A stretch of DNA of 64,000 nt from Lysobacterales bacterium (GCA_045106555.1 JBGCET010000002.1:135752-199751), one strand, 5' to 3'; positions 10,790-23,428 are shown, numbered from the stretch's first letter. Notes: generated by a model not told the origin, from the sequence alone. Numbers and translations are program-made.

Positions 10790-11389
10790 TCAGGCGTCCG
10801 CTGAGCCAATGACTTTCAGGAAAAATGGTTGGCACTTTTCCAGATTCGCGCTGAGCTGTTCCTGGGAGGTTTGAATGGCCCGCGAAAACGACTCCATGGA
10901 TTCTGAAGTCAAATGGGTTTTCAGCGCCTCGTCAGTGCCGCCGTCATCGATATATTGAGCGCGTAAGTAGCCTGATATGATAAATACGGAAAACTCCGCA
11001 GCGACCATGAATAGCTTTTCCTCCTCGTCCTCAACCAGCTCAGGGTGCAGGGATACTCCACATACACCGTAATTGGCGATGGCCTGAACTATAGGGTGTG
11101 GCATCTCAGGCGTGGACAGAGTTGCTGCCACTGGCATCTCGCTAATAATATTCTCCAGCCCCCAGTTATCGATGCGGGTCGCCATTCCTGTGACGGCATG
11201 CAGCGCGCCCGCCAGCTTGTCGGTGTCTGAGCCGTCGACGCCAACCTCAAGCTGATCCATCCTGGCCAGCATTCCCCGTGCGGCGTTCAGTTTTGCCTCA
11301 TCGGGCATCCATGGGAGTTGCGCTTTTGCGACGCCCGAGATCAGAAGGGCGGCGGCAATGAGCAAGGAAAATAGATTGTTCATGAGCAT
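10790..11389 (-). CDS. Hypothetical secreted protein
   Basis: Signal peptide MLMNNLFSLLIAAALLISGVAKA. No recognisable domain. Confidence 0.55.
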   Translation of the reverse strand: MLMNNLFSLLIAAALLISGVAKAQLPWMPDEAKLNAARGMLARMDQLEVGVDGSDTDKLAGALHAVTGMATRIDNWGLENIISEMPVAATLSTPEMPHPIVQAIANYGVCGVSLHPELVEDEEEKLFMVAAEFSVFIISGYLRAQYIDDGGTDEALKTHLTSESMESFSRAIQTSQEQLSANLEKCQPFFLKVIGSADA

Positions 11390-11684
11390 CTTCAGTTAAC
11401 ACAATTGCGTAGTGATCACCTTACTACAGCTCGCAGAGTTTGGTCCGTAGTGTCCGAAAAAGCCTGTTTTTTGCCAGCTTGTCCAATATTTATGGCAATT
11501 TTGTCTAATCGCTTTGTCAACTAACTTTAAATAAGGTTAACGAGTGCAAAGCTGAGACACTGGCTCCCCCACTTGCCTCTATAGTAGCCGCTCTTCGCTA
11601 CCCAGATCAGACAACGATCGGCAAAGCGAGCACATAAAGACGGGCCCCACCAATGAGCGGTCCGCTTAGCTACTAGGGGTTACC

Positions 11685-13406
11685 ATGAAAGGATTAGGAA
11701 AGTACGGAGCGATGGCTGTTGGCCTCGGCTTCTTCTTGGTGTTCTTGCTGGCGGTGCTGGCAACCAACATTTGGTTTGCTAACACGCTGGTCGGGGATCT
11801 GGCTGCTGCCATCTCGCTGCTGCCCGCTGCCGATCAGGAGACCAGCCTGCTGGCGCAGAAGCAATTTAAGCTGCTGCAGATTGCCGCATTAATCATGGCG
11901 GTAGTCTACTTCGCCGGCATTATTTTCGCGCTGAGTCGCGACATTCAACGCAGAGACACAGAAGTTGAAGCCGCCAAAGCGGAAACCGACAACATTCTGG
12001 GTACGGTGACTGAGGGCCTTTTCCTGCTCGATAAGGATCTGGAAATCGGCATGCAGCAATCCGGTGCGTTGCGCGATATGTTTGGTGTTAAAGACGACCT
12101 GAACGGCAACTTCTTGGACTTCATCAACCGTTACGTTCCGGAGTCCACCCTGGACATCGCGCGGGACTTCATCGAACTGCTGTTTGGCGATCGAGTGAAG
12201 CAAAAGCTGATTGGTGACCTCAACCCCTTAACCGAAGTGGAAATCAGCATCGAGCGTCGCGATGGCTCGTTTGAAAGCCGCTTCCTTAACTTCCAGTTCC
12301 AGCGCGTATTGGTAGAGAAGAAGGTGTCACAGCTGCTGACCTCGGTAACCGACGTTACCCGCGAAGTGGTGCTGGCCCGTCAGCTGGAAGAAACCAAAGA
12401 GCAATCAGAAGCCCAGCTGGACCTTCTGGTTAGCATTCTCCACCTTGATCCGGCTCAGGTTCGCCGGTTTCTGGTCAACACCGAACACAGCCTGGACACG
12501 GTTAATGGTCTTCTTAAAGAGCAGACCAGTGGCCGGTCGGGAATTACCAACAAGCTGGCAGCCATCTTTAGAGACGCCCACAAGATTAAGGGTGAGGCCG
12601 CAGCATTGGAGATGCACTCCTTTGAGATTCTGGCTCACGAGTTTGAGGACAAGGTGGAAGAACTCCGGCGCAAGTCTGATACCTCAACCAAAGATCTGTT
12701 GACCTTGACGGTTCATCTGAAGGGCCTTTATGAGCACTTGGCTTCGGTACAGGACATGGTTCAACGGTTCTCCAGTCTCAGTGGTTCACACGAGCACACT
12801 CAGTCCGACGAGAACTCCGAGCCAGCGAATCCGTTGGCGCGATTGGGCAATCAGGTTGCTGAGCGCAATGGCGTGGAAGTGCGAGTTTCTCGGGTAGGCC
12901 TTGACGATGAAGAGATTCCTGAGCCCTACCGCGAGCTGGTGAACGATGCCGCAATTCAGCTGGTACGAAACTCCGTAGCCCACGGTATTGAGGGGCCGGC
13001 TCAGCGTCTGCGCCTGGGTAAGCGGGCTGAAGGTCAGGTGGTGGTAAGCGTTAACACCAGCGACGACGGCGAGCTGGTGCTTCAGGTGCGTGACGATGGG
13101 CGCGGGCTAAACATGGAGAAAATTCGCTCAACCGCCATTGAAAAGAAAATGATTACCTTTGAGCAGGCTAATCGACTGAATCACACCCAGGTTCTCGGGC
13201 TTCTGTTCCGACCCGGATTTTCCACTGCTGAGGAAGGCGGTAGAGACGCGGGTCGGGGCGTAGGCTTGGATGTAGTGGGTGCAGGCATGCGTGAGGCCAA
13301 GGGCCGGATCAGCGTGCAGCATCGCCAGGACCAGTTTTGTCAGTTCCGTCTCATTTTCCCGGCAGTCGCAGACTCCGGTGATGTCGCTGAATCAAGGTGG
13401 GGCTGA
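11685..13406 (+). CDS. Membrane-anchored CheA-like histidine kinase (2 TM, PAS-like, Hpt, CheA-type ATPase; no dimerisation or CheW-like domain)
   Basis: Two N-terminal hydrophobic helices. Hpt motif AHKIKGEAAALEMH. CheA-type N/G boxes QLVRNSVAHGIE, RDDGRGL and GRGVGLDVV. The protein ends about 45 aa after the G2 box. GGGG Shine-Dalgarno sequence before ATG 11685. Confidence 0.8.
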   Translation: MKGLGKYGAMAVGLGFFLVFLLAVLATNIWFANTLVGDLAAAISLLPAADQETSLLAQKQFKLLQIAALIMAVVYFAGIIFALSRDIQRRDTEVEAAKAETDNILGTVTEGLFLLDKDLEIGMQQSGALRDMFGVKDDLNGNFLDFINRYVPESTLDIARDFIELLFGDRVKQKLIGDLNPLTEVEISIERRDGSFESRFLNFQFQRVLVEKKVSQLLTSVTDVTREVVLARQLEETKEQSEAQLDLLVSILHLDPAQVRRFLVNTEHSLDTVNGLLKEQTSGRSGITNKLAAIFRDAHKIKGEAAALEMHSFEILAHEFEDKVEELRRKSDTSTKDLLTLTVHLKGLYEHLASVQDMVQRFSSLSGSHEHTQSDENSEPANPLARLGNQVAERNGVEVRVSRVGLDDEEIPEPYRELVNDAAIQLVRNSVAHGIEGPAQRLRLGKRAEGQVVVSVNTSDDGELVLQVRDDGRGLNMEKIRSTAIEKKMITFEQANRLNHTQVLGLLFRPGFSTAEEGGRDAGRGVGLDVVGAGMREAKGRISVQHRQDQFCQFRLIFPAVADSGDVAESRWG

Positions 13407-13786
13407 TGACCACGATGAAAATCATGGTTGTGGATGACTCCAACGTCATCCGCAACAAAATCAAAACCTGTCTGGGTGACACGCCGTTTGAGTTTGTGGG
13501 TGCTGCCACCAATGGTTTGGAGGCGGTTGAGCAGTTCAAGCTACTGAAACCCCACATGATCACGATGGACATCACCATGCCTCATCTTGATGGCATTGAA
13601 ACCATCAAACGGATTATGGCGATTGACGATCAGGTAAGAATTTTGGTGGTGTCGGCCCTGGCTGACAAGGCCACCGCTATCGAGGCCCTGAAACAGGGTG
13701 CCCATGGATTTTTGTGCAAACCGTTCAGTGATTTAGACATGGCTGAAGCGTTAGAAGAGCTGATGGAGGACCTGATCGATGCATGA
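13406..13786 (+). CDS. Single-domain CheY-like response regulator
   Basis: KIMVVDDS, ITMDITMPHLDG, VVSA and CKPF together give a complete receiver signature. The ATG overlaps the kinase stop (TGATG). Confidence 0.9.
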   Translation: MTTMKIMVVDDSNVIRNKIKTCLGDTPFEFVGAATNGLEAVEQFKLLKPHMITMDITMPHLDGIETIKRIMAIDDQVRILVVSALADKATAIEALKQGAHGFLCKPFSDLDMAEALEELMEDLIDA

Positions 13787-14219
13787 GAATGAGCTGCAGG
13801 TATTTATTGATGGTGCGGTGAACTACTTCACTACGGTTACGGACACGGTGGCTGAAGTTGGGTCTCCTTATCTGGTAGATACGCCTAAAAAATTGGAGTT
13901 CACCGGCATCATCGGAATCTCAGGGCGCAAGAAAGGAGTGGTGTATTTCACTGCGCCGCGGCCCATGTTGATTCGCCTGTTGGCCTACATGGGTGAGCAG
14001 GAAATGAACAACGATAACCTGGCGGACATGGTGGGCGAAGTGGCCAACACTCTGTCTGGAAACGCCAGAAAAGAATTTGGCAAAGACTTCATGATCTCGG
14101 TGCCCGTAGTGGTCTCTGGCGACAGCGAGCAAATCAAGGTGCCCAACGGGGTGAAGTCGTACGCAATACCGATCAGCTGGCGCAATCACTGCGCTTTCGT
14201 GGTCATCAGCATTGAATAA
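13779..14219 (+). CDS. CheX-like CheY-P phosphatase
   Basis: 146 aa with the CheX-family pattern (FTGIIGISGRKKGVVYF...MVGEVANTLSGNA...ISVPVVVSG). Overlaps the cheY-like gene by 8 nt. Confidence 0.75.
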   Translation: MHENELQVFIDGAVNYFTTVTDTVAEVGSPYLVDTPKKLEFTGIIGISGRKKGVVYFTAPRPMLIRLLAYMGEQEMNNDNLADMVGEVANTLSGNARKEFGKDFMISVPVVVSGDSEQIKVPNGVKSYAIPISWRNHCAFVVISIE

Positions 14220-14231
14220 TCGGGGAATATC

Positions 14232-15521
14232 ATGAAAAGGAATTTAGCAATAGTCGGCGCTATCGCCGGCTTAGGGTTTGTCGGCACCGCGTCCGCCAAC
14301 GAGGTGGATGCAATCAACGTCACCAATCTCATTTGGATGGGCATCTGCTGTTCACTGGTTTTGCTCATGCAGCCGGGTTTTGCGTTGCTGGAAAGTGGAC
14401 TGTCTCGATCAAAGAACGCCGTCAACGTGATCATGAAAAACTTTGCGGACCTGTGTATCGGTTCGTTAGCGTTTTGGGCCTTTGGTTACGGCCTGATGTT
14501 TGGCGATAATCCCACCGGGTTTTTTGGCATCAGCGATTTCATGGTGCAGCCAGAAAACGGTGAGGTGGCTCTGAACGTTCTGTATCAGATGCTGTTTGCG
14601 GCAACGGCTGCCACCATTGTGAGTGGCGCGGTCGCTGAGCGGATTCGGTTTATCCCCTATGTGATCGGTGCGGCGTTCATTATCGCAGTGATTTATCCGT
14701 TGTTCGGTGCCTGGGCATGGGGTGACGGTGGCTGGCTGCAAAACCTGGGTTTTGTCGACGCTGCGGGAGCCACAGTAGTTCACTCCATCGGTGGTTGGTG
14801 TGCCCTGGGAGCGGTGCTGGCACTGGGCCCAAGACTGGGTCGGTTCAGTCGCAAAGGCAAAGCGCGGGACATTCCTGGGCACAACCTGCCGATGTTTGCT
14901 TTGGGTTCATTCCTGCTATGGGTGGGTTGGTTTGGATTTAACGGTGGTGCTGCGGTGCGGGACTTCTCTAACCTGGGAACCATCTTGCTCAACACGCACT
15001 TGTCGGCAGCAGCAGGCGTGGCATCCGCACTATTTTTCATGCATCTGCTGAAGCAGCCTATTCTTATGACCACCAGCATTAACGGCGCCTTGGGCGGCCT
15101 GGTGGCGGTCACCGCTGGTTGTGCAACGATGACGCCAGGTGCGGCGTTGCTTACTGGCCTGGTGGCTGGTGGCGTAGTTGTATTTGGCACCACCGCATTG
15201 CTCAAGCTGCGTGTGGACGATGTGGTTGGCGCAATACCGGTGCACGGCATGTGTGGTGCCTGGGGAACCTTGGCGGCCGGCATGTTTTATGCCCCGGATA
15301 TGTTCTCTGTATACACCATGGTGGCGCAGATCATTGGCCTGGTAGCGGCATTCGCTTGGGCCTTCCCGCTGTCCTATGGCGTGTTCAAGTTGATTGACGT
15401 CACCCTGGGTCTGCGTGCCAGCACGCAACACGAGCAGCGTGGGATGGACTTCTCAGAGCACTACGAGACGGGCTATGCAGACTTCATCAATGCCGGTACT
15501 ACTCACCAGGCTAAGGCGTAG
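14232..15521 (+). CDS. amt: Ammonium transporter (Amt/AmtB family)
   Basis: Signal peptide followed by the Amt signatures DAAGATVVHSIGGWCALGAVLALGPRLGRF and GAIPVHGMCGAWGTLAAGMF. Acidic C-terminal tail RGMDFSEHYETGY. Starts 12 nt after the cheX-like gene. Confidence 0.92.
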   Translation: MKRNLAIVGAIAGLGFVGTASANEVDAINVTNLIWMGICCSLVLLMQPGFALLESGLSRSKNAVNVIMKNFADLCIGSLAFWAFGYGLMFGDNPTGFFGISDFMVQPENGEVALNVLYQMLFAATAATIVSGAVAERIRFIPYVIGAAFIIAVIYPLFGAWAWGDGGWLQNLGFVDAAGATVVHSIGGWCALGAVLALGPRLGRFSRKGKARDIPGHNLPMFALGSFLLWVGWFGFNGGAAVRDFSNLGTILLNTHLSAAAGVASALFFMHLLKQPILMTTSINGALGGLVAVTAGCATMTPGAALLTGLVAGGVVVFGTTALLKLRVDDVVGAIPVHGMCGAWGTLAAGMFYAPDMFSVYTMVAQIIGLVAAFAWAFPLSYGVFKLIDVTLGLRASTQHEQRGMDFSEHYETGYADFINAGTTHQAKA

Positions 15522-15523
15522 TC

Positions 15524-16240
15524 ATGACCGCTATTACAGCTAGAGCTCAGTCAGAAGAGCGTAATCAAAGGGCGGTGTTTGCCGCCCTGGCTCGAATGAC
15601 CAAAGACCGTACGTTGCTGCTGGAATGCTGGGAGTTTTTTGCCAGCAAGTTTCGCGGAACCCCGGTATTGGCGGTGAACGATTTTGTGGTGGGACTGGCC
15701 AATCATGTTGGCTTGGACTCCAATCAGAAACGTGCGATGACGGTGGCCTTATTTGCTGCCCTCAATCGTGATGTTGCCGAATTGCCGGAACTGCCGGCAA
15801 CGCTGAGGGACATGAAAGCGGATCGGCCTTCGGATGCTGAGAGAGCCACCGCTGCGGCGGAACAGGATGGGTCGTCGGCGTTCAGCCCTTCCCAGACCGT
15901 GTTTCAGGCCTTGCTGGGCGATTTTTGCTATCGCCTGGCGCGGCAAGATCCTGACGCAGCCACAGACCTGGCGGAAATTGTCGCAGAAAGCAGCCTGCCA
16001 ACCACCTTGGATGTCATGACCTACGCCAAGTTTGGCAAGTGGGCTGATGGCGGATTCGACATTGCCGCATGCCCGATTGATGTTCCGGAAGAGCACCTTG
16101 CCGATATTGTGCATCAATTTTACGTCGGTGCCTGTGAGGCGGTAGGCCCCATGGCCGTAGACCGGCTCTTAACCCGGGCGGTAGAAAATGCCAGCAAGCT
16201 TGCCGAGGCAGACCTGTTTCCGCCTGACCGATTGCTGTAG
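15524..16240 (+). CDS. Hypothetical cytoplasmic protein with no recognised domain, coupled to amt
   Basis: ATG lies 2 nt after the amt stop. 238 aa, acidic, predicted helical. Codon usage resembles the neighbouring genes. Confidence 0.6.
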   Translation: MTAITARAQSEERNQRAVFAALARMTKDRTLLLECWEFFASKFRGTPVLAVNDFVVGLANHVGLDSNQKRAMTVALFAALNRDVAELPELPATLRDMKADRPSDAERATAAAEQDGSSAFSPSQTVFQALLGDFCYRLARQDPDAATDLAEIVAESSLPTTLDVMTYAKFGKWADGGFDIAACPIDVPEEHLADIVHQFYVGACEAVGPMAVDRLLTRAVENASKLAEADLFPPDRLL

Positions 16241-16283: not shown

Positions 16284-16309
16284 TAAGGACCGTCAGCAGT
16301 GGGTCCTTA
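16284..16309. terminator. Inverted repeat between convergent operons (TAAGGACC-N10-GGTCCTTA)
   Basis: An 8-bp stem read directly from the sequence. It overlaps the HDOD stop codon. No clear U-tract. Confidence 0.3.
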
Positions 16310-17125
16310 ATCCTGGATTCCCTGAACCATCGCTTCAACGCGTTGGCGCTGTCTCGGCGTCGGCGCTGCTGCCGTGAGATCGGCGGCGATGGTTGATGGT
16401 TCGGTACCTTCGTCCTGGACGGCGATGGCCATGCGAGCGACATCGAGGGCGCAATGCAAGCGAGAGCTTGAGTGCGGCACAGGTTCATAAGCAGCCAATG
16501 TTGCTTCCGGCAATTGCCATGCCTGAGCGACGGCATACGTTACCTGTCGATGATCCATGCCAATGGCGGCCATCAGTAGACGGCCTAAGCTTTGCGGGGT
16601 GTCAGGCTGCGAATCACGTTGGGTCAACACGGCATGGGTCTGTGCCGGCACCAGGTAAGCTAACGCCAGCAGTCCGATGTTATGGCAAAGTCCCGCTTGA
16701 TATGCCAGGGTTCGTTCGTCTTCGGTGGCCTCGGTATCGCCGTCTATCACGCGACGCGTAGCATCAGCCATGAGCAGCGCGTTAATCCAGAACCGCCCGG
16801 TGTCGAAGGACTGGCAGTGAGCGGTATCGAATACGTGGTCGGCAGCCAGGGCTAGTGCCAACGAGCGGACGTTGTCCACACCCAGCACTCGGTTAACCAC
16901 TTCGTCGACACTTCCGACCGGATTACTCAGGCCAAAATAGGCGGAGTTAGCCAGCGCAACCAGCCTCGCGGAAATTCCCGGATCTTGCCCCACCACGGCG
17001 GCCACTTCTTCGCCGGTAACAAACTCGTCGTTAAGCTCGGTCAGAATCTTTTGCGCAACTTCAGGTAATGGGGGGAGTAAGTTCAGGCTTTCTGCCAGGG
17101 TGTGGGCTTTTTGTACAGCGCTCAT
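16307..17125 (-). CDS. HDOD domain signalling protein
   Basis: HDOD pattern LPPLPEVAQKIL...DPGISARLVALANSAYFGL...VLGVDNVRSLALA. The ATG overlaps the stop of the upstream GGDEF-EAL gene. Confidence 0.85.
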   Translation of the reverse strand: MSAVQKAHTLAESLNLLPPLPEVAQKILTELNDEFVTGEEVAAVVGQDPGISARLVALANSAYFGLSNPVGSVDEVVNRVLGVDNVRSLALALAADHVFDTAHCQSFDTGRFWINALLMADATRRVIDGDTEATEDERTLAYQAGLCHNIGLLALAYLVPAQTHAVLTQRDSQPDTPQSLGRLLMAAIGMDHRQVTYAVAQAWQLPEATLAAYEPVPHSSSRLHCALDVARMAIAVQDEGTEPSTIAADLTAAAPTPRQRQRVEAMVQGIQD

Positions 17126-20100
17126 CAGTTCGCTCCTGCAAGTAATGGTTTGTAGCTGTCGGACAACGGTGAAGTGTCAATCTGCGGAAAGTGGGGCATC
17201 AGAAGTTCAGGGCGGTGAATACCAAACCCCTGTCCGAAGTCTGCACCCAGGTCTCGGACCACTGCCAAAATTTCATCATTTTCGACGAACTCAACAATGG
17301 TCTTGATATTCAGAGAGTGGGCAATATCAATAATGGATTTAACGAAAATCTGGTCCGTTCGGTCTTTGACGATGTCACGAATAAACATGCCGTCAATTTT
17401 TAGGTAGTCCACGTTCAGACGTTTCAGATAGCCGAAAGAGGAAAGGCCACTGCCGAAATCGTCCAGTGCCAGCGCACAGCCCATTTCTTTGAGCGCGCAG
17501 ATCAGTTTTGCGGCCTCACTGACGCTCCGGATCACAGCCGTTTCGGTAATCTCAAAATTCACCATGCCCGGGGGCAGTTGAGAGTTCTCCATCAGGCTCA
17601 GCAGAGCCTGGGAAAACTTTGCATCACCCACGCTTGCGCCGGACAGGTTAACCCAATACCGTCGACCTTCGGCGTGGAAAGATTCGTGAACAAACAGGGT
17701 TTTCAGCAAGTTGCTTACCACCCACTCGTCAAGCTTGATGCTCAGCCCGTAGCGTTCGGCTGCGGGCAAAAAAGCACCCGGAGGCACCAGTTTCTGGGAT
17801 TCGATGTCGCGCATCCTTAGCAGCACTTCCATCCGCTCAGGTTCATTGCCAGCGCCATGCAGAGGAACAATTTTCTGCCCGAAGAGAGCGAATCGGTTGT
17901 TGTCCATGGCATCGTGAAGGCGCTGTACCCAGCGCATCTCTCCACGGTGCGCACGGGCCAAGTCTTTTTCCCCCTGTACCAGGTGAACCTGGTTTCTCCC
18001 AGCTTCCTTCGCCGCGTAGCAGGCAGCATCTGCCAACTGTTGTAACTCGTTTACATCGCCGCGTCGGCGGTCGATAGGCACGCAGCCGATACTAACGCCG
18101 ATGCGGAAAACTTGGGACTCCCACGGAAACAGCAGTTCGTCGACAACCTTACGCACCCGCTCCGCCTGATCCAAAACCTCGTCGACGGTGCGGTTGATAG
18201 CCAGGACGCCAAACTCGTCTCCACCCAACCTGCCGACGGAATCTTCGCTACCTACACATCCTTCAATGACGTTCGCCACCTCGCACAAGAGTTGGTCGCC
18301 GGCGGCATGGCCGCAGGTGTCGTTGACGATTTTGAACTGGTCCAGGTCCATGAACATCAGGTAACTTTTTGTTTTCTTAGTCGGCGCCGAGGACCAAACA
18401 TCGTTTAGGCGTTTCTCAAACGAGCGGCGGTTGAGGAGGCCAGTTAGCTCATCAAAATTCGCCTGGTACTCCAGCAGCCGATTGCTTTCCTCAAGGCGCT
18501 GGCGGGCCTCGTCAATTGAGCGCGTGCGTTCGGCAACCTCTTCGCGCAAACGACGATTGACGCTGGCAATTTGCTGAGTTCTCAGCTGAACAACAACAAA
18601 CACCAAAAGCACCGACGTGAGCGCCGCCAGACCCAGGAACCAGGGTCGCTGCCAAATGGGCGGAAGAACGGAAAATGACTGAACAACCGGTTCACTCCAC
18701 GTATTGCCTGACAGCCTGGCGCGCACCTGAAAGGTGTAGTCTCCGGCACCCAGGCTGGAGTATTGCACGCTGCTGATTTCAGTGGCGGTCGAATATCCGG
18801 CGTCCAACCCAGCCAGCATGTAGGAATATTGAACCTTGTAGGGGTCCAGCAATGACACTGCGCGATAGCTGAATGTCAGGCCGCCGTCTTCGGGTATTAC
18901 CGGTTCACCGGCAAGCAGTGCTTCGGGGTCTGATCCAACGTGGGCCTGGATAATGGCAACAGTAAGGTCTGGCGTGGTGGGCACGGGCAATGACGGATTC
19001 ATTTTTGTAGCGCCTGCAACGGTGCCAAGCCACAGGTCGCCACTACGATCGACATACGTTGCGTGGACATTGGATTCAGTGGCGACGAACCCGTTCAGCG
19101 GATAATGACGATAGATGTGCCGATTGGCCAAATTGATTTGATAAAGCCCTTCATCGGCCCCTACCAGCAGGCTGCCGTTTTCCATCGGGTGAATCAGGTA
19201 GACATTCTGACTCGCCAGTGGTGAACCTTCGCCTATGTTTTGCACATTACCCTTGCGATATCGAAATATGCCCCCGCCGCCGGTGCTGACCCAGGCCGTG
19301 CCGGGTTCGGTGACAATAACTTGGCCAATAAACGGATTGATCAGGTCATCGCTGTTGGGCAACCGCTCATGACGCAGTTGGCCTTGGCCGCCCAGGGTGA
19401 TCTGAAAAATGCCCTGGTTGCTTACGCCAGCCCAGATCTCGTTCTCGCCACTCGCGGCAATGGTGTAGATGCTGCCGTTGGCTGGAAAACTGCTGCGCTG
19501 CAGTTCGCCGGAGACAGGGTCTATGCGCAAGACGCCCGAACTCAGTGTGGACATCCACAAAGCGCCGTCAGGGGTCTCGGTCAGGTCCAGCAACTGCAGA
19601 CCCTCGGTGCCGGAAACCCGTTCAATGGACTGAAGATCCGGAGTTATCCGATATAACCCCAGCCCGCGAACCGCAGCCCACACAGCGCCGTCTTGATCGG
19701 ATAATAGGTCTCTGACAGGGCCTTTGGGCAAGTTCAATTGCGCATTCATGACTGTCAATTCGCCCTGATGCATCATCAATAACGAATCATCGGTGCCAAA
19801 CCAATAACGTCCCGCGCGATCCTGGGTGATACTCCACACCAACCGACCATCTCGGGACTCGTTCAGACTGTAGTGGGTGAATCGAAAGCCAAGAAATCGA
19901 ATCAGTCCTTTTGACGACCCCAGCCAGACGACGTCTTCACGATCGACATAAATGGACTGGATGTCGCCGGTGGGAAGTTGTTGAGTTCTTCCTTCCGGGT
20001 CGATCAGCCGGTCACCGTCGATCTGCCAGAATCCGTAGCGACTACCGGGAGATATCAGTTTGGCCTGTCGGGATAGAGGAACTTTTTTGCCGTTACTGAT

Positions 20101-20847
20101 GCCCCCGTACCACCCACTGCCGTCAGTGGTTGCGTAGCCCACCTGGCCGTCCGCCGATTGTCCAATGGTTGTTATGGAAGTATCGGTGGGCTGGAAATCA
20201 AGCGGGGTATCCCGGCGGGCCGTCCAGAGTTCGTTGCCGCTTCTCAGATAAATGGATTTGCGATCCATGATCAGTTGCTCGGTGGTCGTTGGCAGGCCCT
20301 CCAACCGTTGCCAGCGTTGGGCTGTCTGAGTCGGTGTCAGTTGCCACACGCCATTACCCAGCGTTGAGACCAGCGCAGCATTTGGGCTTAGGTTAACGAT
20401 GCCGGTGATCTGAGAGGGCGGGCCGGGCGGGGGATTAATAACCAGCATGACGCGATTATTGTTGACGATGGTGACGCCACCGGTTGAATCACCCGCCCAG
20501 ACGCGATTATCGGGGTCGATGGAAAGCGCGGTTAGGTGATTGCGTCGCATGCCTTGCGCAATCGTGAGGCTGACAAATTTAGTCCCATCGAAGCGGTTGA
20601 GTCCGCGCAGGGTGGTCATCCACAAGTAACCGTTGTGGTCCTGGGCTAGCGCGCTGGCATCAGCTTGGGACATGCCGTCGGCGGTGGAATACACACGAAA
20701 GGGCGGCGTGGGCTCGGCGCTGGCCGCCGCTTCCGTAGAGCTCAAGGTCGTCAGACCGACCCAAAAAATCGTCAGCAAACCTAACCATTCGGGTGCCAGG
20801 CTGCGTCTCGATGGCCGAATGGTTCGAGCCAAAGCCCGAGGCTGCAA
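17125..20847 (-). CDS. Periplasmic beta-propeller/Y_Y_Y sensor fused to GGDEF and EAL domains (c-di-GMP turnover)
   Basis: About 700 aa of repeated propeller blades, then a TM helix and coiled coil. GGDEF (RLGGDEFGVL) and EAL motifs (EITETAVI, LDDFGSGLSSFGYLKRL, DYLKIDGMF). The start is a non-ATG codon and is uncertain. Confidence 0.9.
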   Translation of the reverse strand: MQPRALARTIRPSRRSLAPEWLGLLTIFWVGLTTLSSTEAAASAEPTPPFRVYSTADGMSQADASALAQDHNGYLWMTTLRGLNRFDGTKFVSLTIAQGMRRNHLTALSIDPDNRVWAGDSTGGVTIVNNNRVMLVINPPPGPPSQITGIVNLSPNAALVSTLGNGVWQLTPTQTAQRWQRLEGLPTTTEQLIMDRKSIYLRSGNELWTARRDTPLDFQPTDTSITTIGQSADGQVGYATTDGSGWYGGISNGKKVPLSRQAKLISPGSRYGFWQIDGDRLIDPEGRTQQLPTGDIQSIYVDREDVVWLGSSKGLIRFLGFRFTHYSLNESRDGRLVWSITQDRAGRYWFGTDDSLLMMHQGELTVMNAQLNLPKGPVRDLLSDQDGAVWAAVRGLGLYRITPDLQSIERVSGTEGLQLLDLTETPDGALWMSTLSSGVLRIDPVSGELQRSSFPANGSIYTIAASGENEIWAGVSNQGIFQITLGGQGQLRHERLPNSDDLINPFIGQVIVTEPGTAWVSTGGGGIFRYRKGNVQNIGEGSPLASQNVYLIHPMENGSLLVGADEGLYQINLANRHIYRHYPLNGFVATESNVHATYVDRSGDLWLGTVAGATKMNPSLPVPTTPDLTVAIIQAHVGSDPEALLAGEPVIPEDGGLTFSYRAVSLLDPYKVQYSYMLAGLDAGYSTATEISSVQYSSLGAGDYTFQVRARLSGNTWSEPVVQSFSVLPPIWQRPWFLGLAALTSVLLVFVVVQLRTQQIASVNRRLREEVAERTRSIDEARQRLEESNRLLEYQANFDELTGLLNRRSFEKRLNDVWSSAPTKKTKSYLMFMDLDQFKIVNDTCGHAAGDQLLCEVANVIEGCVGSEDSVGRLGGDEFGVLAINRTVDEVLDQAERVRKVVDELLFPWESQVFRIGVSIGCVPIDRRRGDVNELQQLADAACYAAKEAGRNQVHLVQGEKDLARAHRGEMRWVQRLHDAMDNNRFALFGQKIVPLHGAGNEPERMEVLLRMRDIESQKLVPPGAFLPAAERYGLSIKLDEWVVSNLLKTLFVHESFHAEGRRYWVNLSGASVGDAKFSQALLSLMENSQLPPGMVNFEITETAVIRSVSEAAKLICALKEMGCALALDDFGSGLSSFGYLKRLNVDYLKIDGMFIRDIVKDRTDQIFVKSIIDIAHSLNIKTIVEFVENDEILAVVRDLGADFGQGFGIHRPELLMPHFPQIDTSPLSDSYKPLLAGAN

Positions 20848-21751: not shown

Positions 21752-23428
21752 CTATGGCGTTCCCAGGGAATGGAGCGAGGCGTGAGCATCTAACACTTGA
21801 CGCAGCCGGTTGGCGAGATCGTGCCGGGTATAAGGCTTGCGCAGCAGGGGAATGGTTTCGTTGTTAGCGTTAGGGCCGAAGTAGCCCGAGGTCATCAGGA
21901 CGGCAATGTTGGGATGTTGATCGCGTATCCACCCGGCCAAGTGATATCCGTCAGTATTGCCGGGCATCACCTGATCGGTAAACACGGCGGAAATCGAATC
22001 GTCGGCATCGATCATTCGTTGTGCTTCCCGCGCGTTGGTCGCCAAACTGACCCGGTAACCCAGTGACTGGAGCATTTTCTGGCAGATATTTAAGAGCCCA
22101 GGTTCATCATCAACCGCCAGAACATGTTCATGGCCGACAGCCATGGTGGCAGGCTCGGTTGATAGGGCTGGCTCTTCAGCTGTCGCCCGTGCGATTTTCG
22201 GAAGCGTAATTGAAACGCGGGTTCCTTCACCGGCGCGAGAACTGAGCTGGATTTCACCCCCTGCCGTCTCGACGAAGTTCTGCACCATCGCCAGCCCAAG
22301 TCCCGACCCATTACCAACGTCTTTGGTACTGAAAAATGGCTGCAGAGCTTGCTCAAGAACCGGTTCGGTCATGCCTTCGCCGTTGTCGTGAATATCCACA
22401 TGGATGGCTTCATTGTGGGCCCATCCCGCGCCCGAACAATGCACATGGATGTGGATCTTACCGCCTTGGGGTAGTGCGTCTCTGGCATTGACACACACGT
22501 TCAGAATGGCGCTATCAAATTGGGCAGGGTCGACGCTGGCCACCGCGGCCCGGCTGTCGTCGGACAATGACAGTTCAATGCCCTTCTTGGCGACGGCGCG
22601 CCGAATCAGCGGCAGGCTCTCAGCAATCTGGGTAGCCAGGGGAATGGGTCTGGGGTCCAGCAGGCGTTGTCCTGACATGGTCTGCAGGTTATTGATGAGG
22701 TCTGCTCCGCCCAGAGTTGCCTGGCGAATATCCTGAACCAGTTTTCGCGTTGACGCTTGCTGTTCCAAACTATCTTCCAACAAATCCAGGTTGCCCATGA
22801 TGACCGCCAGTAAATTATTGAAATCATGGGCTACGCTGCCGGTTAGCCTGCCCATCAGATCAAACTGTTGTTTGCGGCTTAACGCTTCGTGGTGGGCTTC
22901 CAGGCGTACCCGAATACCCATGGCCAGTATGGTGATGGCCAGCATGGCCAGTGGCGCTTTGTATAACAGGTCTTTAACAGAGTATTCAGCGCTTAACCGC
23001 GCCGGAACCGGCAGGTCGAAATGGTAGACCAGGGCGATGCCAACCAGCGCTGAAAAACATACCAGGCAATACACCGCGCCGGATTTTCGGCCGGTTAATA
23101 TGACGGCTAACGCAGGGATGAGCAAAGCCCAGATTAGCCCGCCCGATTCCCGCCCGCCAGTATAAAAACCCAACCCCAGGACACACAGCAGCGAGCTTGT
23201 CAGCAACAAGTGTTCGGCATGGCGAATTTTCCCGCCTCTTTTGACATAAATGGGCGTGATGATGCTGGCAACCAGCGGCAGCATTACAAACCACACAAAA
23301 TCGGGTCGCCCGTTCAGGATGCCAACCAGTGAACCCCAGGTGATTACTGCGATGATGGTCAGAGCGCTGAGAAGAAAATACCGGGCGCTTTCTTTGTTGG
23401 TCAGTCGATGACTGCTGTCTCGTCTCAT
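21752..23428 (-). CDS. Hybrid sensor histidine kinase/response regulator
   Basis: Polytopic N-terminus, H-box SVAHDFNNLLAVIMGNL, an ATPase domain, and a C-terminal receiver (HVLAVDDEPGLL, VFTDQVMPG, LRKPY). Confidence 0.85.
   Translation of the reverse strand: MRRDSSHRLTNKESARYFLLSALTIIAVITWGSLVGILNGRPDFVWFVMLPLVASIITPIYVKRGGKIRHAEHLLLTSSLLCVLGLGFYTGGRESGGLIWALLIPALAVILTGRKSGAVYCLVCFSALVGIALVYHFDLPVPARLSAEYSVKDLLYKAPLAMLAITILAMGIRVRLEAHHEALSRKQQFDLMGRLTGSVAHDFNNLLAVIMGNLDLLEDSLEQQASTRKLVQDIRQATLGGADLINNLQTMSGQRLLDPRPIPLATQIAESLPLIRRAVAKKGIELSLSDDSRAAVASVDPAQFDSAILNVCVNARDALPQGGKIHIHVHCSGAGWAHNEAIHVDIHDNGEGMTEPVLEQALQPFFSTKDVGNGSGLGLAMVQNFVETAGGEIQLSSRAGEGTRVSITLPKIARATAEEPALSTEPATMAVGHEHVLAVDDEPGLLNICQKMLQSLGYRVSLATNAREAQRMIDADDSISAVFTDQVMPGNTDGYHLAGWIRDQHPNIAVLMTSGYFGPNANNETIPLLRKPYTRHDLANRLRQVLDAHASLHSLGTP

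Follow-up and report, generated by a model that had tools for sequence, protein, structure and literature searches.

Can an ammonium transporter homologue that carries no fused signalling module act as the receptor of a kinase encoded beside it? This question is raised by a gene cluster at positions 11685–16240 of a 64,000-nucleotide stretch of DNA (GCA_045106555.1 JBGCET010000002.1:135752-199751, hereafter the window) from a Lysobacterales metagenome-assembled genome (MAG). Open reading frame (ORF) calling and domain scans delineate five tightly coupled genes, all on the plus strand, which encode in order a kinase, a CheY-like receiver, a CheX-family phosphatase, an Amt protein and a protein that I hereafter call the orphan. 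The reading favoured here, which I hold at a little less than an even chance, is that of a split ammonium receptor: Amt and the orphan would together serve an intramembrane-type Hpt kinase as co-sensor, and the kinase would signal through a CheY/CheX relay. It is favoured because Amt is of the receptor type, the linkage of the genes is conserved, the linked proteins are monophyletic, the loss of a sensor domain by the kinase tracks the linkage, the relay motifs are intact, and the junctions are tight with no glnK at hand, and because there is precedent for co-sensing by a transporter and a kinase and c-di-GMP genes are enriched at the linked loci.

The junctions, read from the sequence, agree in every detail with a preliminary description of this DNA, as does the common direction of the five genes. 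The stop codon of the kinase gene (11685–13406) overlaps the ATG of the receiver gene (TGATG at 13404–13408), and the stop codon of the latter (13784–13786) lies beyond the ATG of the CheX gene (13779), giving an 8-nt overlap. Ahead of the amt ATG at 14232 lies a 12-nt gap, tcggggaatatc, in which GGGG resembles a Shine-Dalgarno sequence, and 2 nt separate amt from the orphan ATG at 15524. No promoter-sized gap precedes amt, as had been stated: the sole gap of that size on the 5' side of the cluster is the 295-nt intergenic region upstream of the kinase gene (11390–11684). Scans of the cluster and this upstream region for consensus sigma-70 promoters and for terminators gave results at or below chance, which are uninformative on transcription, and a sigma-54 scan of the same DNA gave no match. 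A near-miss sigma-54-like sequence, TGGCTC…CTTGCC, lies 5' of the kinase gene at 11561–11577; its GG–GC spacing is one base longer than the consensus and it is probably non-functional. The absence of glnK from the window was also borne out, a tblastn search with E. coli GlnK being negative for the whole 64 kb and for the first 87 related loci, and yielding nothing at E≤1e-4 in 28 further loci (L088–L115). Genes for methyl-accepting chemotaxis proteins (MCP), CheW, CheR or CheB were not found among the cluster genes and those neighbours that were scanned.

Is the Amt protein a transporter of the ordinary kind? Its gene (14232–15521) encodes 429 amino acids (aa) that match Ammonium_transp (E=3e-113) and score above the cutoff of the general model TIGR00836. 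Its scores for the AmtB equivalog NF007947 (170.7 bits against a cutoff of 657) and for the marine-subtype ammonium transporter TIGR03644 (339.8 bits against 514) are both below threshold. The best matches in the PDB (phmmer) are two receptors, Ks-Amt5 of Kuenenia (6EU6, 300 bits) and Sd-Amt1 of Shewanella denitrificans (8QJ3/8QPF, 296 bits), compared with 197 bits for Af-Amt1 and 154 bits for E. coli AmtB. Receptor (AmR) proteins are characterized by the signature QX6EX15NX2D[F/T]X54-60TX2[S/T], which corresponds to the N1/N2 site, a pocket that is missing from AmtB and Af-Amt1 (Pflueger et al. 2024, PMC11152129). Alignment to Sd-Amt1 and Ks-Amt5 and a regular-expression search place all the N1/N2 ligands in the window Amt (Q47, E54, N70, D73, T128 and S131), together with the switch residues F50, K69 and Y143, equivalent to F25, K44 and Y119 of Sd-Amt1, with N284, equivalent to the exit-constricting Asn269, and with an elongated loop 5, as noted for Ks-Amt5. 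The comparison with Ks-Amt5 made in the preliminary description is thus well founded. The selectivity elements are kept as well: W163, the Phe gate F122/F236, and the twin histidines H184 (VVHSIGGW) and H338 (VHGMCGAWG), which that description had also picked out. The protein deviates from the signature at two points, L74 in place of F/T and a spacer of 53 instead of 54–60, and the same two deviations occur in all triad-linked Amts, the triad being the kinase, receiver and CheX genes. In addition, the vestibule serine (S219 in AmtB, S225 in Sd-Amt1) is Ala240 in the window Amt (codon 14949–14951), and is alanine in the Amt of locus L004 too.

All ten triad-linked Amts that were tested have the full N1/N2 ligand set. 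The window Amt has a signal-peptide-like N-terminus, consists of the Ammonium_transp domain only and ends about 30 residues past transmembrane (TM) helix 11, with no fused transducer module. The idea that its nearest relatives might be fused sensor Amts was rejected, since all 120 nearest proteins are stand-alone; cluster 2 of the 2024 study also includes single-domain Amts (PMC11152129). By its signature, then, this Amt is of the receptor type and may bind ammonium without net transport. The signature is compatible with a receptor role. It is no proof that the protein is only a sensor, since genuine transporters bear it too.

The kinase (573 aa) had been described as a CheA-type Hpt/ATPase enzyme, a description that holds for its Hpt phosphodonor and its CheA-like HATPase_c domain but not for the rest of the molecule. 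Pfam recognizes Hpt (PF01627, E=6e-7) and HATPase_c (PF02518, E=2e-11), and NCBIfam CheA models align partially to residues 386–560, far under their cutoffs. The protein, as modelled by AlphaFold2 (AF2; single chain, predicted local distance difference test (pLDDT) score of 79), consists of a TM helical hairpin, a PAS-like alpha/beta domain (residues ~111–223), a coiled coil, a four-helix Hpt bundle (256–368) with the phospho-histidine H299 in HKIKG, a linker, and HATPase_c (383–560). Only the disordered linker 369–382 connects Hpt and HATPase_c in the model, and the chain ends about 13 aa past the ATPase domain. Pfam gave no match to a CheW-like P5 domain; a P3 dimerisation domain (H-kinase_dim) was neither matched by Pfam nor present in the AF2 model, no profile-profile search having been made; and the P2 domain is likewise missing relative to CheA. 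CheW and P3 domains were found in 100% of CheAs in a survey of CheA architecture (PMC10542144). Because the window kinase has neither, the term CheA-like fits its Hpt–ATPase chemistry only. It is not a CheA, but a membrane-anchored Hpt-type kinase of a family that normally bears its own PilJ-type periplasmic sensor.

This family is large (491 matches among the scored candidates and 571 relatives in GTDB species representatives). Its members are membrane-anchored, and many of them carry a PilJ/NarX-type periplasmic domain (PF13675), which was found in Amt-unlinked kinases only. Hydropathy analysis gave TM1–TM2 loops of 157–205 aa, plus one of 303 aa, in the unlinked kinases, of 103–116 aa in an Arenicella/Marinicella/Eionea-type group, and of 38–39 aa in the kinases of the window, L003 and L004. 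In the AF2 model of the window kinase the region is a bare hairpin, both TM helices being extended and joined by a turn of ~4 residues. In the Amt-linked clade the periplasmic sensor of the kinase has been lost. A PilJ P-box-like motif was tried as a discriminator and found too weak (19 of 74 unlinked against none of 9 linked kinases); loop length is the robust signal. Within the same clade the catalytic elements are invariant in the alignment, namely H299, K302 and G303 of the HxxKG motif, the N-box, and the G1 and G2 boxes. Loss of the loop that tracks linkage to Amt is the pattern of intramembrane-sensing kinases for which a transporter serves as co-sensor.

The downstream components appear to be equipped for a relay. 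The receiver gene (13406–13786 from the ATG at 13406, with an alternative GTG at 13397) encodes 126 aa from the ATG that match Response_reg (PF00072, E=5e-27), and its pocket is complete: the acidic DD of MVVDD, the phospho-Asp in ITMDITMP and the Lys in FLCKP. The CheX gene (13779–14219) encodes 146 aa (PF13690, E=1.5e-21) with the catalytic D-x3-E-x2-N motif, as DMVGEVAN. The motifs of both proteins are kept in all nine Amt-linked loci tested, and the kinase gene is invariably succeeded by a receiver gene and then a CheX gene in all 80 reference loci of the kinase family where the contig allows this to be read. The earlier proposal of a stand-alone receiver, devoid of a DNA-binding domain and accompanied by its phosphatase, is in keeping with these results; since the receiver is a single domain with no output domain according to Pfam, it must act on a protein. 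The cluster thus resembles the CheA–CheY–CheX core in having an Hpt phosphodonor, a CheA-like HATPase, a single-domain CheY and a CheX with intact catalytic motifs, and differs from it in that the kinase is anchored in the membrane, has a PAS-like domain and is devoid of CheW/P5, P3 and P2.

Is the association of Amt with these genes more than an accident of one genome? A survey of gene neighbourhoods showed that it extends well beyond one strain. The kinase–receiver–CheX triad is a widespread cassette, which in 74 of 80 reference loci has no Amt; the Amt–orphan pair adjoins it in one clade only, of marine Gammaproteobacteria. The pair stands beside the triad in 11 loci (the window, L003, L004, L008–L012, L023, L090 and, in Eionea flava (GCA_052983335.1), L091), and the complete cluster occurs in cultured Eionea flava as well as in Arenicella MAGs. 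Two gene orders are found, kinase–receiver–CheX–Amt–orphan or, in the Marinicella-like loci L008 and L090, the pair divergent and upstream of the kinase gene. The flanking genes are wholly different across these loci, and the linkage persists down to 38–43% kinase identity. In a neighbour-joining (NJ) tree of 83 kinases the linked ones are monophyletic in 40 of 40 bootstraps, the only unlinked member inside their clade being that of L006, whose contig ends right after the receiver gene. The linked Amts are monophyletic in 100 of 100 bootstraps in an NJ tree of 28 orphan-paired Amts, and the major groupings agree between the two trees, so that Amt and kinase have been inherited together. Monophyly, matching groupings and retention at low identity fit a single capture followed by joint inheritance. 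That an ordinary amtB came to lie next to a chemotaxis-like operon by chance, or in this strain only, is a notion for which only the prior that gene order is fluid can be invoked; it is refuted by these comparative data and must be regarded as extremely improbable. It would have to account for 11 independent loci and monophyly in both trees, and it further conflicts with an Amt that falls so far short of the AmtB equivalog and with a set of cluster genes and scanned neighbours that includes neither CheW nor MCP.

Several observations were made on the triad and its surroundings in this survey. The kinase nearest to the window clade (48% identity, 674 aa) is that of L006/L007 (GCA_054033175.1; Logan SRR33956860); linkage to Amt is unscorable there because both contigs end right after the receiver gene, and a Y1 transposase gene lies on the same contig. 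Other clades of the triad have accessory genes of their own, such as a Ser/Thr kinase gene (Pfam Pkinase) directly upstream in 19 loci (e.g. L047:3712-5061) or a gene for a TonB_C-domain protein of ~630 aa in 33 loci (e.g. L018:8764-10656), and the triad has the look of a signalling module whose partners are exchangeable. In several Amt-linked loci, not including the window, the kinase gene is adjoined by a gene for a Gcw_chp/TorF-like putative outer-membrane porin (PF09694; L003:5856-6491, L004:7261-7920, L008:8883-9524, L090:4102-4812 and L011:8130-8618). Ammonium might cross the outer membrane through this porin.

The last gene of the cluster (15524–16240) had been called an orphan ORF, and its 238-aa product has no Pfam, NCBIfam or PHROG match. 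It turns out not to be incidental. A word-indexed profile search retrieved 47 clusters, and an exhaustive search 808 representative clusters at E≤1e-3, of which 578 are at ≤1e-10 and 101 at ≤1e-30. An Amt gene ends a few bases upstream of the orphan gene in all 37 loci with readable upstream DNA; these comprise 9 loci of the kinase survey, L088–L093, 20 of 22 metagenomic loci (the other two being truncated) and two distant members chosen at random. The orphan founds an unannotated protein family that is the obligate partner of this Amt subfamily, of which 22 of 28 orphan-paired members have the full N1/N2 ligand set. Since the pair is obligate and widespread in loci where no kinase is encoded, the ancestral unit is the Amt–orphan pair rather than the cluster of five. 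As modelled by AF2 (pLDDT 87.5), the orphan is soluble and all-alpha, with helical domains at residues 1–96 and 122–238 separated by a disordered linker, and it has no fold match in the PDB (best E=2.5). Its C-terminal part bears the conserved motif H197-x2-Y200-x3-C204-E205-x2-G208-P209-x3-D213. A clue to its role was sought in gene fusions, and none was obtained: the best 150 of the 808 are all stand-alone proteins of 136–357 aa. In Sphaerotilus (L088:6782-14380 and L089), the Amt–orphan pair adjoins PAS, Roadblock/LC7, Ras-like GTPase (MglA/MglB-like) and bactofilin genes; the Amt sequence there reads …MKIYLGTC… where the N1/N2 Asn and Asp have been lost.

An Amt with a small soluble cytoplasmic partner, a translationally coupled junction between their genes and a conserved Amt C-terminal region all recall the AmtB–GlnK pair. 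The differences from that pair are that no PII protein is involved, the partner being an unrelated, all-alpha protein (238 aa) whose gene lies downstream, and that the window Amt has the N1/N2 pocket and scores far under the AmtB equivalog cutoff. A second alternative is reversed wiring, in which either the kinase or the phosphorylated receiver would bind to the orphan or to the C-terminal region of Amt and gate ammonium uptake in GlnK's stead. A receiver that must act on a protein, the absence of glnK, the downstream position in the operon of Amt and the orphan, where targets are often encoded, and the occurrence of the orphan at the genomic position of an Amt regulator in every readable locus are all compatible with such an arrangement. 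It is nevertheless improbable: it provides no evident input for the kinase after the loss of its periplasmic domain, the PAS-like domain aside, it leaves the conserved N1/N2 receptor pocket unused, and the REC-EAL and PilZ genes adjacent to some of the clusters (see below) suggest other targets.

How might a split receptor operate? In the favoured reading, the trimeric Amt would admit NH4+ through the normal selectivity filter and divert the ion into the lateral N1/N2 pocket (E54, N70, D73, T128 and S131), as Ks-Amt5 and Sd-Amt1 do. The resulting conformational change would be read by the cytoplasmic orphan, by the TM hairpin of the kinase or by both, and the kinase, devoid of a periplasmic sensor of its own, would alter its autophosphorylation on H299. 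The phosphoryl group would then pass from H299 to the single-domain CheY-like receiver, which CheX would reset, and the phosphorylated receiver would act by protein–protein contact, its likeliest targets being c-di-GMP turnover or reader proteins. The window system has much in common with Ks-Amt5, an Amt–histidine kinase fusion, and Sd-Amt1, an Amt-HAMP-GGDEF protein: the N1/N2 ligands, the equivalents of F25, E29, K44, Y119 and Asn269, loop 5, the lack of an adjacent glnK, and, downstream, a kinase and possibly c-di-GMP. In contrast to both, the window Amt is unfused, its candidate transducer being a distinct protein, an Hpt-type kinase that brings a TM hairpin of its own; the system has an extra obligate partner, the orphan; and Amt itself differs by the aliphatic L74 after the Asp, the spacer of 53 and the vestibule Ala240.

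Communication between a transporter and a separate kinase has precedents. One such co-sensing system is PstSCAB-PhoU-PhoR, and a soluble adaptor between transporter and kinase, analogous to PhoU, would fit the orphan, albeit a protein with no fold similarity to PhoU or to any PDB entry. Co-sensing that involves loop-less kinases has been established for BceS-BceAB, GraS-VraG and DctA-DcuS (PMC3023708, PMC7951975, PMC5703999). As in BceAB-BceS and VraFG-GraS, the kinase of the window has two TM helices and a near-zero extracytoplasmic loop, and it is genetically coupled, in 11 loci, to a protein of a transport family, which would supply the ligand recognition. Unlike in the Bce-type systems, this family is Amt and the kinase is of the Hpt rather than the HisKA type.

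Which proteins might the receiver act upon? The preliminary description had put forward the motor or the adjacent c-di-GMP enzymes. Nothing points to the flagellar motor. The neighbourhoods of the Amt-linked loci are enriched in c-di-GMP genes: in L003 (11157-12332) and L004 (12618-13778) the orphan gene is succeeded by one for a REC-EAL phosphodiesterase, and a PilZ gene follows the CheX gene in the Marinicella-like loci (L008:12713-13126 and L090:557-988); near 71 triads with no Amt, only one GGDEF and one HDOD gene were found. Pfam scans of the window itself identified two genes on the minus strand that converge on the cluster, an HDOD gene (16307–17125) and a Reg_prop/Y_Y_Y-GGDEF-EAL gene (17125–20847, 1240-aa product), a linkage that is specific to the window lineage. 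The HDOD start, at 17125, shares one base with the stop of the GGDEF-EAL gene, and the two look like an operon that ends 66 nt from the orphan stop. Proteins that turn over or read c-di-GMP are suggested as the output of the relay by this gene content, in a manner that is suggestive only.

A number of the observations weigh against the split receptor. The N1/N2 signature is present in 117 of the 120 nearest Amts, and the cluster of proteins that bear it makes up ~30% of all Amts and includes working transporters such as plant AMT1 (PMC11152129). A cytoplasmic PAS-like domain remains in the kinase and could be its true input. As monophyly implies that the linkage arose once, its persistence may partly be a matter of inheritance. 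The kinase, CheY and CheX genes are not nearby in most of the 37 Amt–orphan loci, which implies that the pair works without the relay. A Sphaerotilus-type branch of the orphan-paired Amts has neither the Asn nor the Asp ligand, so that the role of the orphan is not tied to N1/N2. Finally, no c-di-GMP genes were found near the Arenicella, L009, L023 and Eionea loci. Some of these points can be accommodated by another explanation, that of co-expression only, in which Amt and the orphan form a self-contained unit for regulated ammonium uptake, the orphan being a GlnK-like gate or a chaperone, and merely share a transcript with an unrelated signalling cassette. The kinase would then use its PAS-like domain to detect some other stimulus, and Amt and kinase would exchange no information. 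Retention of that domain, the frequency of each module in loci devoid of the other (the triad stands alone in most reference loci, and Amt–orphan pairs are common without it) and the fact that signature-bearing Amts can be true transporters (PMC11152129) all accord with it. This explanation is nonetheless unlikely, though it deserves to be taken seriously, for mere co-expression sits uneasily with a linkage that outlasts divergence to 38% kinase identity, a full turnover of the flanks and an inversion to the divergent orientation, and with the agreement of the Amt and kinase trees in their major groupings. Nor does it explain why the periplasmic sensor became dispensable, a loss that is confined to the linked clade.

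The remaining neighbours of the cluster in the window are a divergent ORF of 199 aa (10790–11389, minus strand), with a signal-peptide-like N-terminus and no Pfam or NCBIfam match, whose homologs are found in no related locus except L001, a copy of the same contig, and a hybrid histidine kinase gene (HisKA-HATPase_c-REC; 21752–23428, minus strand) 5.5 kb downstream.

What is new here is the unannotated orphan family and the unfused-Amt arrangement; Amt-based receptors and co-sensing by transporters are already known. Only two bacterial Amt-based ammonium receptors have been characterized, both of them fusions, and the output of Sd-Amt1 is a diguanylate cyclase (PMC11152129). The role of many unfused Amts with the receptor signature was left open by the 2024 structural study (PMC11152129), and the gene neighbourhoods of such proteins were examined in neither of the Pflueger papers (2018 and 2024; PMC11152129). 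According to a 2026 paper, it has yet to be shown directly, outside anammox bacteria, that Amt proteins sense external ammonia (PMC12918730), and a literature search for CheX together with an ammonium transporter returned nothing relevant. The locus gives unfused receptor-type Amts a candidate role that is genetically testable, with a defined kinase, a relay, a reset phosphatase and a previously unnoticed partner protein, and the split-receptor hypothesis can be tested directly since the complete cluster is present in a cultured bacterium, Eionea flava. If it is true, the principle of the transporter as co-sensor would be extended to nitrogen sensing, and ammonium availability would be tied to second-messenger control in marine Gammaproteobacteria. 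A broader and more doubtful proposal, which I would bet against at present, is that the orphan is the first of a widespread class of Amt-binding transducers, equivalent in function to GlnK or PhoU but with an all-alpha fold that has no match, that would read N1/N2 occupancy or conformation of receptor-type Amts for lineage-specific effectors, here the Hpt kinase/CheY/CheX relay controlling c-di-GMP. Many of the unfused cluster 2 Amts of bacteria would in that case be ammonium receptors made of two pieces and not transporters.

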